58,034 nucleotides of DNA from Eledone cirrhosa (GCA_964016885.1 CAXHJY010000587.1:1-58034); one strand, 5' to 3'; counted from the first letter of the stretch, positions 6,529 to 56,814 are shown. The notes: generated from the letters alone by a model not told the origin. Made by a program: numbers and translations.

Positions 6529-6670
6529 ACAAAAGAAATGTGGTAAGGAACCAGATGGACCATAACGCACCAAAGTACTCAATACTTAGGGTAGTAGAGT
6601 GGGTAATATGAACAAGTATGACCCCCGACGGCTGAGCTCAAGCCGTTTCGACAGCTAATTCTGAACTCAT
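6529..6670 (-). mobile_element. Penelope-like module, family C (3' half of hammerhead plus tail)
   Basis: The minus strand reads GAAA-CGGCU-UGAGCUC-AGCCG-UC-GGGGGUC, then a tail with CTAAGTATTGAGTAC; homologous to 22912-23121, 23458-23622, 19640-19685 and 28460-28512. Confidence 0.7.
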
Positions 6671-7134
6671 ACATATATATATATATACACCACTCACAAA
6701 TGGCTATGATGGTGGAAGATTGAGTAACGAAAGAAAGAAAGAAAGAAAGAAAGAACGAAAGAAAGAAAGAAAGAAAGAAAGAACGAAAAATGAGAAAGAA
6801 AGAAGGATAGAAAGAGATTTAAGGGAGGGGGCTGAGATGGTTGTGAAACAAGAGGATGCGGCGTTTGTTTTAATAATGTTGATGCAGCATTAACAAACTG
6901 GTTGGCGGTTTTGGTGGTGGTGGTGGTGTTGATGGTGGTGTTGATGGTAGTTGTGGTGATACTGTTGTTGTTGGTGGTGGTGGTGATACTGTTGTTGTTG
7001 TTGTTGGTGGTGGTGGTGGTGGTGTAGTGAGGGTCGAGAGACCTCAACATTGTTGGCAAATATACAAATAGTGGCCTTTTACACCTCCACCACCTCCCAC
7101 CTTCACTCCCTACCAATAAAAATAATAATAATAA

Positions 7135-7655
7135 TCGTTTCTACTTTAGGTACAAGGCCAGCAATTTTTGAGGGGAGGGGGATGTCCATTAAATCTACCC
7201 CAGTGGGTTACTGGTACTTTATATTATCGATTCTGTAAGGATGAAAGATAAAGTTAACCTCTGCGGGATTTGAAATCAGATCCTAAAGGGCCGTAACTCT
7301 ATGCTGCAAAGCATGGCGTCTGACGCTCTGCCGATACTGCCAAACCACCAGCATAATAATTATAATAATTGTTTCTACGTTAGGCACAAGGTCAGCAATT
7401 ACCCAGTGTATTACTGGTACTTTATTTTATCGACCCCGTAAGGATGAAAGGCAGGCAGGAGGCCAATAATTTAGGGAAGGGAAAGTCGATTAAACCGACC
7501 CCAGTACATTACTGGTACTTTATTTTATCGACCACGTTAGGATGAAAGGAAAATTTAACCTCGGCGGGATTTGAACACAGATCATAAAGGGCCGTAACGC
7601 TATGCTACAAAGCATGGCGTCCGATCCTCTACCGATACTGCCAATCCACCACCCT
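7135..7655 (-). mobile_element. Tandem cluster of tRNA-derived SINE family 1 (two near-full copies and one partial)
   Basis: A-box-like TGGCAGTATCGGTAG, B-box-like GTTCAAATCCC, body TTCATCCTTACGGGGTCGATAAAATAAAGTACCAGT and tail GCCTTGTGCCTAAAGTAGAAAC. Confidence 0.85.
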
Positions 7656-7751
7656 TTACCGTAATAACGGACACTGGATACTTTGCAGACAGTGCATCAA
7701 CAAGAGATATTTTTATCCACAAAGTTCGATCACGAACACTATATTTAATAG

Positions 7752-8226
7752 AGCAGAGATCAAGTCCAGTACATAAGTTGACATTATCAAGCCTTCGTTT
7801 TGGTTGTCGCCCCTGGTCCTCTTACCAGCCAACCTTCCTTACGGGAATATATAATACCTTTCGATTACCAACAGCAGAGATCAAGTCCAGTTCATAGGTT
7901 GACATTATCAAGACATCGTTTTGGCTGTCGGCCTCTGCTTCTCTTACCAGCCAACGTTCCTTCCAGGAATATATAATACCTTTCGATCACCAACAGCAGA
8001 GTTTAAAGAGCAGAGATCAAGTCCAGTCTATAGGTTGACATTATCTAGCCGTGGTTTTGGCTGCCGGCCTCTGCTTCTCTTACCAGCCAACCTTCCTTCC
8101 AGGAATATATAATACCTTTCGATCACCAACAGCAGAGTTTAAAGAGCAGAGATCAAGTCCAGTCTATAGGTTGACATTATCTAGCCATCGTTTTGGCTGC
8201 CGGCCTCTGGTTCTCTTACCACCCAA
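7752..8226. repeat. Tandem array, about 4 units of 120-132 bp
   Basis: AGCAGAGATCAAGTCCAGT...GTTGACATTATC...CTCTTACCAGCCAAC...GGAATATATAATACCTTTCGAT is repeated; the last unit is incomplete. Confidence 0.9.
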
Positions 8227-8569
8227 CGTTCCATCCAAACAAAACCTACTCCCACCACGAGCTGGTCTTCGCAAAGGGTTGTAACTATATGCTGCAAAGC
8301 ATGGTGTTTGACGTTCTATCGATACTGCCAATCCGCCATAGAATTGAGGCTATAGAAATGTTATTTTGTTGGTGTATATAATTGAATTATTCCTGATATT
8401 CTCCAAGACTTGCAACAGAACTTGTTAAACAGTCTTAATATCTAATCTGATAAAAAGATCTTCAAATAGTTTTCACAGTCGGATCTTGTGTGGTGTTTAT
8501 CGATTTCAACAGTCGCTTTATTAATTAACTTTTGTTCATTAATACCTGATGGTCTCTCTCTCTCCATCT

Positions 8570-53255: not shown

Positions 53256-53657
53256 TAACGGCTGGCTCAGCTGGGGGATAACATAAGGGGCAGTAACTCT
53301 AACGAAGCTTTGTATATGAAAAACGTGAAGTTGTACATCTGGCGATATACGGTTTGTTTATAAATAAATATTTTGAAAGCTTTCAGATCTAGACTTGAAA
53401 ACTGATCAGTCCATGTAATAGGATGCTAAATTATAAGTTCTAGCTCATAAGTTCCAACAGTAAGCGGTCGGCAGTACCAGTTTAATAAGGACCAAAGTCA
53501 AAAAAGATGTCATCACCACTAGTTGCCCGTATTTAGCTTCAGTTTTTATATTCATGGCTGAAGGCTTTCAAAATGTTTATTTATATACATACCGTATATC
53601 ATAAGATATACAACTTCACGTATTTCAAAAGAAGCTATGTTAGAGTTACTACCGTTA
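53256..53657. mobile_element. Family K inverted pair
   Basis: 53290-53386 is inverted against 53559-53652; 53437-53541 is the reverse complement of 52823-52932. Confidence 0.7.
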
Positions 53658-55829
53658 TATATATATATATGTGTGTGTGTAAGTGTGTGTGTGTGTGTGT
53701 GTGTGCATGTGTGCGTGTGTATGTATGTGTGAACGTGTGTTTCCGTGTCTGCGCGCGTGCGTGCGTGCGTGTGTGCGCGTTGTTGCGTGTATGCGTGCGT
53801 GAGTGTGTATGTGAGTGTGTGTATTTTTATGTGTGTGCGAGTGCGTGTGAGTGTGTGTGTATGTACGTGGGTGTGTGTGCGTGTAAAAGGTAAACAGACA
53901 TAACAAAAATAATAACAGAAGAAATGGCAGAGTATATGGAAGAAATATATTAGTTTAACGTTTCGGACATTAGCGCATCATCAAAACACGATGCCTTCAC
54001 AGCTTTTATATATATATATATATATATATATATATATATATATATATATATATATATATATATATATAGTGGTGTAGCTAGGGTAAACAGCGCCCAGTGC
54101 AAGCATCAAAATTGGGATTCTGTCATTTAGTAATTTATTTTTGGATTTTAAGATGCTCTGAGGAAACAGTGGTAACAGCATTTGATAATTGAGTTTTGCA
54201 AATAGTTACAAATTTGCACATAGCATAACTAGGCTGTATAACCACCGTGGAAACATTTGTAATCACACGGATTAAATTACCTTTTTATGATGTCTACCTG
54301 TTATTATTCATTCTTTATATATATATATATATATATATATATATATATATATATAATGGAAAAATTTGAACAGGAACAAAACAGAGAGGCAGTACAACGA
54401 ATGTTTATTAATTTCACGCTATATATATATAGTAGCTATATATATATAGTAGCCCTAATTAAAATGACCCAGTCTTGTCACATGGTGTCATGCTACTTCG
54501 GCATCTGCACTGAGATTTACGTTAAAGTGTACATGTTAGTGCAAGAAACAACACGCAACAGCCATTTCCTTACACGTTTATTTACACACGAGTTGTTCAT
54601 CTGATGGAACAGCCACAACCGAATGCTGGAGGCGAAAACTGATAGAGAACTAACCGACCAATCAAACACTACAGCAACAAAACACAAGCGAGGAAAAAAA
54701 CTTGTGAGGGAAAATTTCGAAAACACAAAGATAGATTCACAGCAATGGTGTTAAATTCTAATATAACATGAATAAACATAAAATCTTGGAAATTCTCAAC
54801 AGTTATATTTATTTATAGATGTCAAAATCTAATAAACGTTGAGATAAATCACAGAACTGGGATAAATAATATGTTTAATTCATTCGCTGATTACAACTTT
54901 GGCTTCTAGTGTTCTTTTTATTTGCGCCATTATTCCGAGATGTTAGCGACACCACGCGGTATTTATGTGAACGTTTCTCTCTTACTCCCATAACGCCTGA
55001 TTGAGTCGTAGGCAGTTCTGGATTTACCGTTCTGCTAAGATGTGCTTAAGCACAGGGCCTTGTTGGCCAGAGGGTAAATCCCATCTTCCTACACCCAAAA
55101 AAGAGGCCTCATAATTTAACTAGCACATGGCCTCATTTGTCTTAAATCCAGCACGTTTTACCGGTGTGCTTATGTGTGCCCAGATGGTCAGAGGATAGGT
55201 CCCCTCTTCCTGCCCCCAAAAGGTTTTTACCTCCTTCAGGCCCCGAGTAGGCGGTATCATAGCTTAACTGACACAGGGCCATATTTGTCCTGAATCCAAC
55301 ACTGGTCATAGGGGCGCCCTACTGACTGATATACAACGTTTCTTGGGCATCTTTTCAACCCTGGCGGAGAGCACACCCTTCCCTCCAATTTTGAACATTT
55401 CAGATGTCTTACAGAGAAGGATAGAATGTGAGAGCAAGGAAGCAACAGAGAGGTACAGAGGAAGGATCTACCCCAGTACATTTGTAGAGACCAGGAATGG
55501 ATGAAAGGCAAATTGTCCTGGGCGGGTTTCGAAATCATAGTGGACAAAACCGGAACGAATAACGAAAGCCTTATATCTGGCGTACTACCGACCCTTATGT
55601 AAACGTACAGAATTAAAAAGGAAAGAGCCTTGTTATACACTACTACTACTACTACTACTACTACTACGTTATTACACAAATCCGTTTGTATATAAATATG
55701 TATATATATATATATAAAAATACATATATATATATTTATATATATATATACACACACACACACACATATATATACACACACACACACACACATATATATA
55801 TATATATATATATATATATATATATATAG

Positions 55830-55960
55830 GTAAGTGATTCTGGGTTGAATCGGATGTAACCACAGTAAGTAAGGTACTCAATACATAGCAGAGTAAAAAG
55901 TTTTAATATAGATGAGATTCTACAGGACTAGAATTGTTTCATTCTTTAGAAATCATTAGG
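55830..55960 (-). mobile_element. Family B module, single arm
   Basis: The minus strand reads CUAAUGA-UUUC..GAAU-GAAA-CAAUUC-UA-GUCCUGUAG followed by the family tail. Confidence 0.7.
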
Positions 55961-56648
55961 AATATATATATATATATATATATATATATATATATATATA
56001 CATATATATATATGCATACATATATATGCATATATATATATATATATATATATATATATATATATATGCATACATATATATATATATATATATATATATA
56101 TATATATATATATGCATACATATATATATATATATATATATATATATATATGCATATATATATATATATGCATATATATATGCATATATATATACATATA
56201 TATATATATATGCATATATATATATGCATATATATATATATGCATATATATATATATATATATATATATATATGCATACATATACATATATATGCATACA
56301 TATAGATATATCTGCATAAATATATATATATATATGCATACATATATATATATATATGCATACATGTATATATATATATGCATACATGTATATATATGCA
56401 TACATATATATGCATACATATATATATATATATATATATATATATATATATATATATATATATATATATATATATATATATATATATATATATATATATA
56501 CTAAGAGTGGGAAATGAAATTTCGTTTCATTTTTCCGTTTAACGTTTTCGGTGCACCCGGCCGATTAACCCAATCGATATGCAAATTGGGCTACTCACTT
56601 GTTAATAGGCATCAGGTATATACGTTCAACAATCTGCCAGGAAGGTAT

Positions 56649-56691
56649 ACGTTGCTGACGAAAGCTAATAAGCTTGAAACTAGTACAGCGT
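56649..56691 (+). ncRNA. Canonical minimal type I hammerhead (family I module, about 56503-56812)
   Basis: ACGUUG-CUGACGA-AAGCU-AAUA-AGCUU-GAAA-CUAGU-A-CAGCGU with palindromic ACUAGU stem III. Confidence 0.85.
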
Positions 56692-56814
56692 TCCATTGTC
56701 AGCGTTGAACAAACGAGCAACGATGGTGGCTGGACACTACGGCTTAATACGGGATGTTTGTTTACAAACACACCGAGGATTATAATAAATTTTCGGTGAA
56801 TCCATACGTACTAA

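Follow-up and report, generated by a model that had tools for sequence, protein, structure and literature searches.

Hammerhead ribozymes in Penelope-like elements (PLEs), the targeting of (TA)n by these elements and a link between retrozymes and PLEs are already in print. The minimal hammerheads (min-HHRs) of PLE pseudo-LTRs (Cervera and de la Pena, 2014, PMC4209133) belong to type I and have a short or palindromic helix III, an extra base after A9 in several families and a U3-A8 core variant; many families occur per genome, mostly as single motifs from truncated PLEs, and close pairs lie on opposite strands. The same features were found in Eledone cirrhosa, the extra base in part of the families. 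By contrast, stem III in Eledone takes, in most cases, the form of a palindrome of 6-10 bases or of a true hairpin; other pairs often stand in for G10.1-C11.1, entire families are fixed for U4C or U4A, and more than 150,000 intact cores were counted, against the 2,000-9,000 hammerheads per genome reported with different descriptors.

The Hydra-clade PLEs (Craig et al., 2021, PMC8557442) share with the partner ORFs described below the motifs DKT, RW(K/R), CxCX5C, CxxC and CxH, and also have a hammerhead near the 3' end and insert into (TA)n; by eye, the partner ORFs look like Hydra-1_Obim of Octopus bimaculoides (PMC8557442, supplement). However, that clade was described with few families, generally shorter than 3 kb, whereas at least five Eledone families, assigned to it by motifs, have 3' regions of 0.8-1.5 kb. 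[quoted passage not shown]

Animal non-LTR retrozymes (Cervera and de la Pena, 2020, PMC7229834; Li, Clavereau and Pollet, 2026 preprint) consist of units without an ORF, a few hundred bases long and joined head to tail, with a GC content below 45%, one type I hammerhead per unit and co-existing PLEs, as in two of the Eledone families. In both reports the link with PLEs was drawn from co-occurrence and from homology to pLTRs; molluscs are absent from the 2026 preprint, which leaves tails and inverted partners undiscussed. The Eledone units differ in their PLE insertion signature and their uniform or ABAB arrays, and are known from sequence alone, whereas circles and cleavage have been shown for published retrozymes. 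Finally, PAc, a Poseidon PLE of Anolis (Frangieh et al., 2024, PMC11167929), resembles the Eledone elements, as interpreted below, in its two internal RT start sites that define a tail, in the cutting of both strands of an AT-rich target and in a hammerhead upstream of the start sites that is unneeded for insertion, but was studied in vitro as a single coding element, without a non-autonomous template or circle. The scale and the insertion footprints described here were not found in the literature searched.

Hammerhead sequences of the window

The window, that is, the whole stretch analyzed, is an unplaced 58-kb contig of E. cirrhosa (GCA_964016885.1 CAXHJY010000587.1:1-58034), 17% of which is (AT)n. 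It holds 38 intact or broken hammerhead sequences of 17 families, mostly PLE ends inside AT repeats, recognized by homology to natural hammerhead copies in a scan for which four of the seeds had been taken from the window itself. By our reading of the matches, thirteen have canonical cores, six are complete with U4C or U4A, ten are mutated and nine are 5'-truncated halves. An earlier note had counted about 25-30 motifs, which is true solely when decayed copies are included, because just 13 of the 38 cores are intact and canonical. Its statement that most families recur stands for 13 of the 17, although in three of these both matches are the arms of a single inverted insertion. CUGANGA..GAAA, a U-H triplet and a stem III that pairs with itself are present at all six sites that it named, the cores of which start at 20914 (+), 21341 (+), 23256 (+), 45324 (-), 47230 (-) and 56655 (+); stem I is slipped at 23256, and stem II is partly decayed at 21341 and 47230.

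The hammerheads in the window are real. A strict type I descriptor with stem I detected eight motifs in the window, whereas 300 dinucleotide shuffles of its unique islands gave 0.03 on average (maximum 1), and a stricter one that included variant cores detected five (51350 being probably a chance match), against 0.03 in 60 block shuffles. An Rfam E-value scan of the window returned no hammerhead among the best 150 of 669 matches, which were dominated by AT-rich miRNA models. That AT-rich, palindrome-rich DNA should yield such motifs by chance, or that they are assembly artefacts, would suit an unplaced, (AT)n-rich contig and monomer folds that are in the majority no better than shuffles, but this idea was refuted, to the point of having practically no probability left, by the strict motif excess, by a genome-wide pattern count of 134,634 against 6,247 in the backward control, by identical families with varied junctions on all chromosomes and by the presence of one family, F8, in two independent public assemblies of reads.

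Whole-genome patterns gave about 154,000 intact ribozyme cores above background, in line with the very large numbers previously proposed. The density was one per 1.5 kb in the window and one per 4.2 kb in the genome (58 sampled 10-kb stretches); with about 2.7 times the average density, the window overstates the genome. Each Hydra-type family of the window was estimated from the sample to have tens of thousands of truncated ends.

CUGANGA, GAAA and the U-H triplet follow in type I order in the canonical and U4C/U4A copies, with three helices and helix I open; many single copies are decayed. In a scan that did not require it, stem III was a palindrome in seven of the 13 recurring families (4/12 in the null), a hairpin in five and neither in one, so that the palindromic stem III claimed earlier holds for only part of the families. 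Folded as single strands, the motifs mostly miss the active form (z from +0.75 to -2.3, 8/8 motifs). The double-hammerhead form lay, by folding energies, within 0.4 kcal/mol of the best dimer in three of seven palindromic motifs, in agreement with the dimer-type architecture put forward before. Ribozymes with a palindromic stem III are predicted to cleave as dimers, and those with a hairpin as monomers. An extra base between A9 and 10.1, with G10.1-C11.1, was observed in H7, F4, F12 and L186; in other families the first pair is U.U or A-U, as in many of them, or C.A. The core variants U4C, reported to lower hammerhead activity (PMC3088659), and U4A are fixed family-wide. Core and pairing are maintained across diverged subfamilies: 93% of cells were paired, eight of 21 pairs were altered on both sides, and none of 500 shuffles matched this retention, in an alignment biased towards structure because the copies were picked by descriptor.

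Coding partners and insertion footprints

In seven of the 17 families (F1, F13, H5, H10, H7, F4a and H2) the sequence extends upstream into a GIY-YIG ORF whose distance is fixed, with the RT followed by a C-terminal GIY-YIG ahead of the hammerhead-bearing end; this arrangement is absent for F8 and H1. From ORF end to hammerhead the distance was 761-777 bases for F1 (10 of 12 among the matches listed), 941-956 for F13 (four loci), 1012-1096 for H5 (three), 1485-1521 for H10 (six), 374-625 for H7 (10), 213-235 for F4a (two) and 1243 for H2 (one). The partners are Pfam RVT_1/GIY-YIG matches, partly below cut-off, and fell in animal HTH/RVT_1 clusters in an atlas look-up. The Hydra motifs DKT, RWR and CxCX5C were present in the H10 partner, DKT and CxCX5C in that of H2, and CxCX5C, CxxC and CxH in those of F1, F13 and H5. 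The H7 partner has its CX2-5CxxC linker ahead of GIY-YIG, a stretch that also fits CxCX5C, and its RT and EN resemble DKG-type ORFs. A young 900-aa RT+GIY-YIG ORF was flanked by two hammerhead-bearing repeats as an inverted pair. The Penelope-like origin proposed in the note was supported.

Among the Hydra-type coding PLE 3' ends, H10 forms an inverted pair at 28562..29330, with one short and one long end and hammerheads of the family-fixed U4C core at 28598-28650 (-) and 29077-29129 (+), and small inverted insertions at 19703..19909 (U4C hammerhead 19738-19783, -, cut at stem I) and 13943..14113 (hammerhead 3' half 14046-14078, +). F1 is present as a module at 6529..6672 (-) that begins within loop II and has the GAAA..GUC half alone (6623-6667), an inverted pair at 22911..23118 with the long end left and the short end right (halves 23003-23050, -, and 23058-23106, +), an inverted insertion at 23459..23624 (half 23499-23538, +) and half hammerheads at 19638..19686 (-) and, with the short end, 28461..28511 (-). 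H2 modules lie at 21309..21424 (+; core 21341 intact) and 45348..45530 (-; mutated core, 45388-45446), and at 10030..10301 an H2 3' end with tail (-) is joined to an H2/H9 chimeric piece (+; half hammerhead 10212-10256). The putative Neptune-type coding PLE 3' end H7 occupies 23133..23371 (+), with a minimal hammerhead at 23251-23291 (4-base palindrome, slipped stem I), and 37281..37526 (-), with an intact core in the hammerhead at 37361-37402. The Hydra-type PLE ends F13 and H5 were located at 29690..29798 (+; U4A core and hairpin stem III, 29731-29780) and 50708..50953 (U4A hammerhead 50750-50799, -), and at 30765..30933 (-; mutated core 30805-30870), respectively. The F4a inverted pair (45859..46336) has a hammerhead at 46021-46065 (-) with a canonical core and an additional base ahead of stem II, and a decayed F4a-type module at 52500..52700 (+) has a mutated core (52538-52580). 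The F4b inverted pair (12827..13169) is cut ahead of the hammerhead and is without ribozyme, whereas longer genomic copies carry one; an additional F4b piece lies at 11881-12007.

No partner ORF was found for eight of the 17 families (H8, H9, H12, H15, H6, F12, F18 and F20). The H15 inverted pair (9595..9906) has canonical cores at 9628-9685 (-) and 9747-9806 (+) with stem III ACC-nnn-GGT, the H6 pair (19960..20213) a mutated hammerhead at 20028-20098 (-) and one with U4C in that copy at 20116-20187 (+), and the F12 pair (46677..47096) an intact core at 46801-46894 (-) and a mutated one at 46959-47048 (+). H8 forms inverted insertions at 13547..13681 (half hammerhead 13645-13679), 21125..21253 (mutated core 21194-21246) and 51650..51804 (mutated hammerhead 51664-51705, -), and a module at 55828..55963 (-; mutated core 55913-55963). 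The remaining modules are H9 at 45229..45333 (-; core 45324 intact), H12 at 47127..47260 (-; core 47230 intact) and 40965..41075 (+; core and cleavage triplet mutated), F18 at 12036..12408 (-; mutated U3-A8-type hammerhead 12091-12129) and F20, seen in two copies, at 51100..51167 (+; decayed, with canonical core and weak stems).

As a search of the window by tblastn with PLE ORFs gave no match, all window copies are non-coding, and two families are ORF-less tandems. These observations could be taken to mean that all modules are dedicated, non-autonomous short elements and that the upstream ORFs are chance neighbours, as PLEs nest in common (TA)n tracts and scattered ORF neighbours would result. 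This is very improbable, since the ORF-to-ribozyme distances are constant across independent loci, the intervening 1.5-2 kb are 95-96% identical and H10 and H7 have 5' ends at all distances as far as the ORF; for F1, F13, H5, H10 and H7 it was refuted. Given the fixed distance, the short window copies of the seven families are 5'-truncated ends of coding PLEs rather than non-autonomous elements. As a general statement, the "non-autonomous" of the earlier note is consequently not supported, ORF-less tandem units having been shown for only two families.

Residency in (TA)n, also claimed before, was supported: of the 139 loci sampled, 122 had (AT)6+ no farther than 200 bases away, compared with 33% of positions chosen at random, and copies of the Hydra-type families are located in (TA)n. 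Two discrete 3' ends were observed in F8 (20 short and 17 long, n=40), H1 (20 and 26, n=53) and H10 (16 and 12, n=28), and a single one in 29 copies of H7. One short and one long end were combined in 42 of 46 inverted pairs, and the window has eight long palindromic self-matches. The 5' ends coincided with the predicted cleavage site in 2/40 copies of F8 and 0/53 of H1 (excluding rows running on upstream), and were close to it in 3/60 of F1, showing that the DNA copies do not owe their 5' ends to cleavage.

The best overall explanation, which we consider highly probable, is that the modules are hammerhead-bearing pseudo-LTR ends of many PLE families, likely written into (TA)n by PLEs, with seven coding-end and two protein-less tandem families. 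Published work (PMC4209133, PMC8557442, PMC11167929) agrees with it. The PLE reverse transcriptase-GIY-YIG protein, which the two protein-less families likely borrow, would introduce nicks on the two strands of a (TA)n tract, as the flanks suggest and as was shown in vitro on AT-rich DNA for the Anolis PLE (PMC11167929). Reverse transcription would then be primed by each DNA end at one or the other of two fixed positions inside the element, 45-190 bases behind the ribozyme, which would account for the short and the long ("tailed") 3' ends observed. The two cDNAs would stop early and join head to head, as seen in the palindromic islands, which combine a short with a long end. With the ribozyme so close to the priming sites, even truncated copies of 130-300 bases would keep it, hence the swarm. 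Weighing against the explanation are the monomer folds, most of which disfavour the active form, the replaced first pairs, the U4C cores and the eight families without a partner ORF.

The ORF-less tandem families

F8 and H1 are ORF-less tandem families with units of 483 and 422 bases, respectively, longest Met-start frames of 44 and 53 aa across two units, a GC content of 37-39% and arrays of up to 10 units. They correspond to the definition of non-LTR retrozymes and are classed as such from their sequences. Both also bear the marks of PLE insertion, namely 3' ends of two kinds, a partner in inverted orientation that has the opposite kind, and (TA)n flanks, which mask any target-site duplication. 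The F8 insertion of the window (20310..21062) consists of an inverted arm with the long 3' end and a forward arm of 570 bases, exceeding one unit, with the short one; its intact type I hammerhead (20908..20995, +) has a 10-base palindromic stem III and a predicted GUA site at 20987. H1 is represented by a single unit with the short 3' end at 56500..56902 (+), with an intact hammerhead at 56649-56693 (+; predicted GUA site 56685), and by an older copy at 36328..36605 (+) with an intact core and decayed stems (36459-36499). F8 is very young, its best 40 copies being 99-100% alike.

The F8 arrays differed by 0.12% within and 6.75% between arrays (39 units, 11 loci), and the inverted partner arms had the haplotype of the array; an additional figure from the array evidence was 12/344 versus 3797/10537. 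No signal emerged when a 230-base portion of F8 was tested. In a first sample, H1 units from one array differed about as much as those from different arrays (0.208 vs 0.215); two arrays showed ABAB alternation (L351, with 13 substitutions and one indel, and L352) and two were mixed (L015 and L020). Uniform F8 arrays and ABAB H1 arrays are the pattern that rolling-circle copying of circular RNA would leave. The ribozyme would cleave multimeric transcripts into units, which would likely be circularised and copied round several times, so that the tandem versions are likely to have been copied repeatedly from circular RNAs. Uniform arrays could alternatively come from a uniform source array, later homogenisation or assembly polishing.

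The arrays may instead have been mobilised by PLEs with linear multimers, transcribed from source arrays that were already uniform, as templates, or have grown in place by unequal crossing over, the hammerheads being passengers and neither circle nor cleavage needed. This possibility, to which we give somewhat less than an even chance, is in keeping with the 5' ends lying off the cleavage site, the mixed H1 arrays, the uncleaved RNA used as substrate in vitro (PMC11167929) and the local tandem growth favoured by the 2026 preprint. On the other hand, there are many haplotypes, each fixed across an entire array and its inverted partner, which argues for repeated single-unit bottlenecks; moreover, arrays terminate in PLE 3' ends, the window F8 copy is longer than one unit, and core and pairing are retained across diverged subfamilies. 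Two published results speak against the main explanation: in Xenopus, only one of nine retrozyme dimers was cleaved in vitro (bioRxiv 10.64898/2026.07.22.740005), and in the Anolis PLE cleavage is dispensable for insertion (PMC11167929). The linear route touches the circle step alone and is compatible with a PLE origin.

A joint reading, rolling-circle copying included, appears to us evenly balanced. Eledone would have the densest animal load of self-cleaving ribozymes yet (more than 150,000 intact cores, about half a million remnants and at least 30 families). PLE proteins would reverse-transcribe the ORF-less retrozymes by rolling circle, copying hammerhead-cut, circularised monomers or dimers up to ten times per insertion, from both target ends, into uniform and ABAB arrays. 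The commonest tiny modules, F1 and H8, would be "strong-stop" cDNAs reaching from the RT start site to the promoter start inside the pseudo-LTR.

Significance

The function of PLE hammerheads and the mobility of animal retrozymes are open questions, and direct support for the circle-template idea (Cervera, 2014, 2020) has been lacking so far. F8, being young, with 1,209 exact ribozyme copies, a near-optimal predicted dimer fold and haplotype-pure arrays, makes this long-proposed route testable, and intact 900-aa examples of host PLE ORFs exist. The one-short-one-long rule connects the two RT start sites known in vitro to the two target strands, and ribozyme chemistry is offered natural variants in the U4C, U4A and U3-A8 cores, which are fixed by family. 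This hammerhead load escapes annotation based on Rfam; 235 hammerheads have been reported for the giant squid (PMC6962438). The hundreds of thousands of inverted pairs would, if transcribed, be a large potential source of double-stranded RNA.

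Hammerhead loci and other repeats in the window

A strict type I descriptor (CUGANGA, GAAA, palindromic stem III, U-H and stem I) recovered eight motifs from the window, whereas 300 dinucleotide shuffles of its unique islands gave a mean of 0.03. The count thus exceeded shuffled controls, the comparison by which the earlier note could have been refuted, and the core was present at all six of the sites that it had named. Homology to 104 natural hammerheads of 31 families, used as seeds, gave 38 hammerhead-derived loci from 17 families: 13 had canonical cores, six had complete U4C or U4A core variants, ten were mutated and nine were truncated halves. 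The proposed 25–30 motifs in at least ten families were exceeded in loci and families, but only with decayed copies included, as just 13 of the 38 loci had canonical cores. Similarly, the palindromic stem III described for these modules was found, with this stem unconstrained, in seven of 13 recurring families, but five of the 13 had a hairpin instead; among chance matches from three shuffles of 1.75 Mb, 4 of 12 had one or the other.

Pairing in the H2/H5/H11 group was kept in 93% of cells against 38–57% in slid controls, with both sides changed in 8 of 21 pairs, in 11 diverged copies picked by the descriptor. In predicted folding, single strands mostly did not adopt the active form (z > -2.4 in 8/8 motifs), and the gap between a double hammerhead and the best dimer was at most 0.4 kcal/mol in F8, H1 and H10, and larger in four other palindromic motifs. 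An Rfam E-value scan of the window was dominated by mir-297-type AT matches and was uninformative. Inverted repeats in the window were found by masked self-BLAST, since the unmasked search was swamped by (AT)n.

The F14 repeat (10411-10839, 11087-11512 and 31691-32087), 425 bases long, partially tandem and present as 23 copies in 20 loci, was left out of the count: it has CUGA and GAAA..GUA pieces, and no stem I was found. Its GAAA-CCNCUGG-UA pieces resemble stem III of H6 and H15, and it may be a further module of the Penelope-like element (PLE) type or an unusual ribozyme. At two places, 10166-10288 and 45239-45472, H9 comes immediately after H2; in the former a deletion has joined the stem I strand of H2 to the 3' half of H9.

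Other repeats were also observed. An abundant SINE-like repeat of ~195 bases, which we take to resemble an octopus SINE, lies at 7130-7660, 21715-22640, 26717-26913, 40767-40960, 44342-44965 and 47864-48462, often as head-to-tail tandems of two or three and once as an inverted pair. A second SINE-like repeat (27126-27292, 31118-31280) has a tRNA-like head; ARAGORN found no tRNA genes in the window. An ORF fragment resembling the restriction-like endonuclease region at the end of a non-LTR retrotransposon of the CRE/NeSL type occurs at 52940-53240 and 36226-36329, the second piece adjoining an H1 copy (36328..36605, + strand), and a short LINE C-terminal fragment was found by tblastn at 40100-40216. 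At 52700-52932 and 53292-53650 lies a further recurring module family, inverted and next to (TA)n, in which no hammerhead core was recognised. Tandem repeats without hammerhead cores occupy 7725-8237 (period ~120 bases), 35622-36051 (18-36), 39864-40559 (~400) and 43403-44160 (50-60).

Coding partners of the modules

A first look at the genome gave 10,595 GIY-YIG (PLE endonuclease) candidates, and young intact PLE ORFs of ~900 aa were present. In these coding PLEs a type I hammerhead sits in the 3' repeat. Its core is canonical in one Neptune-type family, whereas two other families have U3-A8 and the L186 family, where the ORF and two repeats are arranged as an inverted pair, has U4C. The suggested link between modules and PLE ORFs was borne out for seven module families, long copies of which ran into GIY-YIG ORFs. 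Among the matches listed, the ORF lay at a fixed distance from the hammerhead: 761-777 bases in F1, 941-956 in F13, 1012-1096 in H5, 1485-1521 in H10, 374-625 in H7, 213-235 in F4a and 1243 in H2. One H6 locus also ran into such an ORF, and in these listings no partner ORF could be assigned to H8, H9, H12, H15, F12, F18 or F20. The view of the modules as a non-autonomous radiation was therefore narrowed: these seven families are truncated ends of coding PLEs, and it stood for F8 and H1, which are ORF-less tandem units.

Hydra-clade motifs were found in the ORF partners of F1, F13, H5, H2 and H10, and the partner ORFs resemble, by eye, Hydra-1_Obim of Octopus bimaculoides, which together with the octopus-like SINE points to a probable octopod host; the partner of H7 appears Neptune-like from its motifs. 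The U4C core was family-fixed in H10 (24 of 25 parsed copies, out of 28). The first module of the hammerhead-bearing stretch, at 6529, belongs to F1. When complete, the F1 hammerhead combines a U3-A8 core with a long stem II and with a stem III that forms a hairpin; F1 as a family of half-ribozymes only was ruled out, the U3-A8 core being kept upstream in 12 of 92 scanned matches.

Two observations concern Neptune-type elements. Palindromic pieces at 47434-47690 match both ends of a coding family and hold its 3' tail without the hammerhead. In the 3' region of a Neptune-type PLE (loci L073 and L075), both copies share a hammerhead-like motif with U3-A8 and with GCAA replacing GAAA, which may be one more core variant or else an inactive ribozyme carried by a mobile family.

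Insertion ends and ORF-less tandem units

F8 has a 483-base unit in arrays of up to ten (the ten-unit array lies at G000:C1:149204300-149211800), with top copies 99-100% alike, and H1 a 422-base unit. In two units of each, no ORF longer than 53 codons from Met was found, and no consistent ORF lay upstream; by sequence both fit the definition of non-LTR retrozymes. In the window, F8 is represented by an insertion at 20310..21062, whose forward arm of 570 bases exceeds one unit, and H1 also by a copy at 56500..56902 (+ strand). Outside the window, hammerhead units 460-510 bases long, likewise tandem and ORF-less, were observed (L062:7200-7660, L005:396-864 and L071:8568-9562), so the genome holds several retrozyme families.

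Truncated PLE ends and tandem units alike terminate at one of two fixed positions, beyond which lies (TA)n: unit positions ~75 and ~185 in F8, and ~215 and ~272 in H1. The short end was found in 16 and the long, tailed end in 12 of 28 H10 copies, and 42 of 46 head-to-head pairs in five families combined one of each; H2 gave no such pairs with the reference used. The palindromic islands of the window have the same one-sided tail. This signature matches the PLE tail and the pair of reverse transcriptase (RT) start sites demonstrated in vitro together with cutting of both strands (PMC11167929), and would correspond to nicking and priming on both strands.

That cleavage sets the 5' ends was ruled out: they lay at the cleavage site in 2 of 40 F8 and 0 of 53 H1 copies, not counting rows in which the match runs on upstream as a short remnant of the ribozyme. 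In F1, the start of the copy falls 35-48 bases upstream of this site in 58 of 76 copies, most often at -41, and further upstream in six; in H8 it falls between -46 and -33 in 15 of 22 copies, and further upstream in two. TATA-like matches, weak in DNA so AT-rich, lie ~30 bases before these clusters (TATAAAT at -75 in H8, TATTTAT at -72 in F1). A stall or processing site could possibly produce such clusters; tentatively, they might represent cDNAs reaching a transcription start inside the pseudo-LTR, and an F1 transcript from this inner start would then carry the core without its first half. The clusters of H5 and H2, possibly due to subfamily divergence, were not used.

F8 arrays were highly uniform: among 39 full units from 11 loci, divergence was 0.12% within and 6.75% between loci (12/344 against 36% in an earlier comparison), 70 of 83 shared minor alleles were fixed through whole arrays, and the inverted partner arms carried the haplotype of their array. 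Two H1-group arrays, L351 (13 substitutions and one indel) and L352, alternated as ABAB, the pattern expected if a dimeric circle had been copied two times over. Other H1 arrays were mixed, the first H1 array set gave no within/between difference, and the same test on part of the F8 unit gave no signal. Uniformity might also stem from source arrays that were already uniform, from homogenisation after insertion or from polishing of the assembly. On these array patterns, a circular-template step seems slightly the better account. As to expression, no RNA run was listed for the H1 unit, and of four read runs of unknown kind compared with an F8 array, two yielded contigs and two did not, with no informative joint and so no evidence either way.

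Genome-wide load

Across the 3.0-Gb genome (1,796 contigs), CTGANGA-N11-40-GAAAYRNNYRTH occurred 134,634 times (backward control, 6,247), an H1 30-mer 24,767 times and an F8 23-mer 1,209 times. Since the three patterns cannot overlap, the excess over background amounts to ~154,000 intact cores, a figure that checks cores without stems I and II and leaves out 4-base palindromes, hairpin stems and the U4C, U4A and U3-A8 families. The very large genome-wide ribozyme numbers predicted from the window were thus borne out.

A sample of 58 stretches of 10 kb, at round-number positions rather than random draws, held 32 strict motifs (0-2 in shuffles) and 139 homologous loci, extrapolating to 165,000 (bootstrap 98,000-232,000) and 718,000 (522,000-940,000) genome-wide; this 580-kb sample overshoots the exact counts by ~25% (H1 31,000 against 24,767; generic 170,000 against 134,634). 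Residency in AT microsatellites was upheld, with (AT)6+ at most 200 bases away at 122 of the 139 loci against 33% of random places. The window, which is a whole contig with 463 (AT)6+ tracts covering 17%, has one hammerhead locus per 1.5 kb against 4.2 kb in the sample, a 2.7-fold density in line with its 2.6-fold (AT)n content.

Other reported loads are >6,000 in a coral and up to 120,000 retrozymes in the axolotl. Lunse et al. 2017 reportedly found some 150,000 variants in a large set of genomes. In the papers compared (which included PMC3088659 and PMC13282606), minimal motifs number ~2,000-9,000 per genome (PMC4209133), and the giant squid has 235 Rfam hammerhead matches (PMC6962438). PLE hammerheads, their action as dimers and the U3-A8 variant (PMC4209133 among others), the targeting of (TA)n by Hydra-clade PLEs, one Octopus family among them (PMC8557442), and the retrozyme-PLE link (PMC7229834; 10.64898/2026.07.22.740005) are likewise in print there. 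The main text of the O. vulgaris repeat annotation does not mention ribozymes. In the literature open without subscription, no report was found of a cephalopod hammerhead load of comparable size, of retrozyme arrays that bear tails and inverted partners, or of arrays that are uniform or alternate as ABAB.

The modules of the window are hammerhead-bearing ends of Hydra- and Neptune-type PLEs together with retrozymes probably mobilised by PLEs, largely of a known kind. Their significance lies in the scale of the hammerhead load, and the 483-base family, being young, makes the circle-template hypothesis directly testable.
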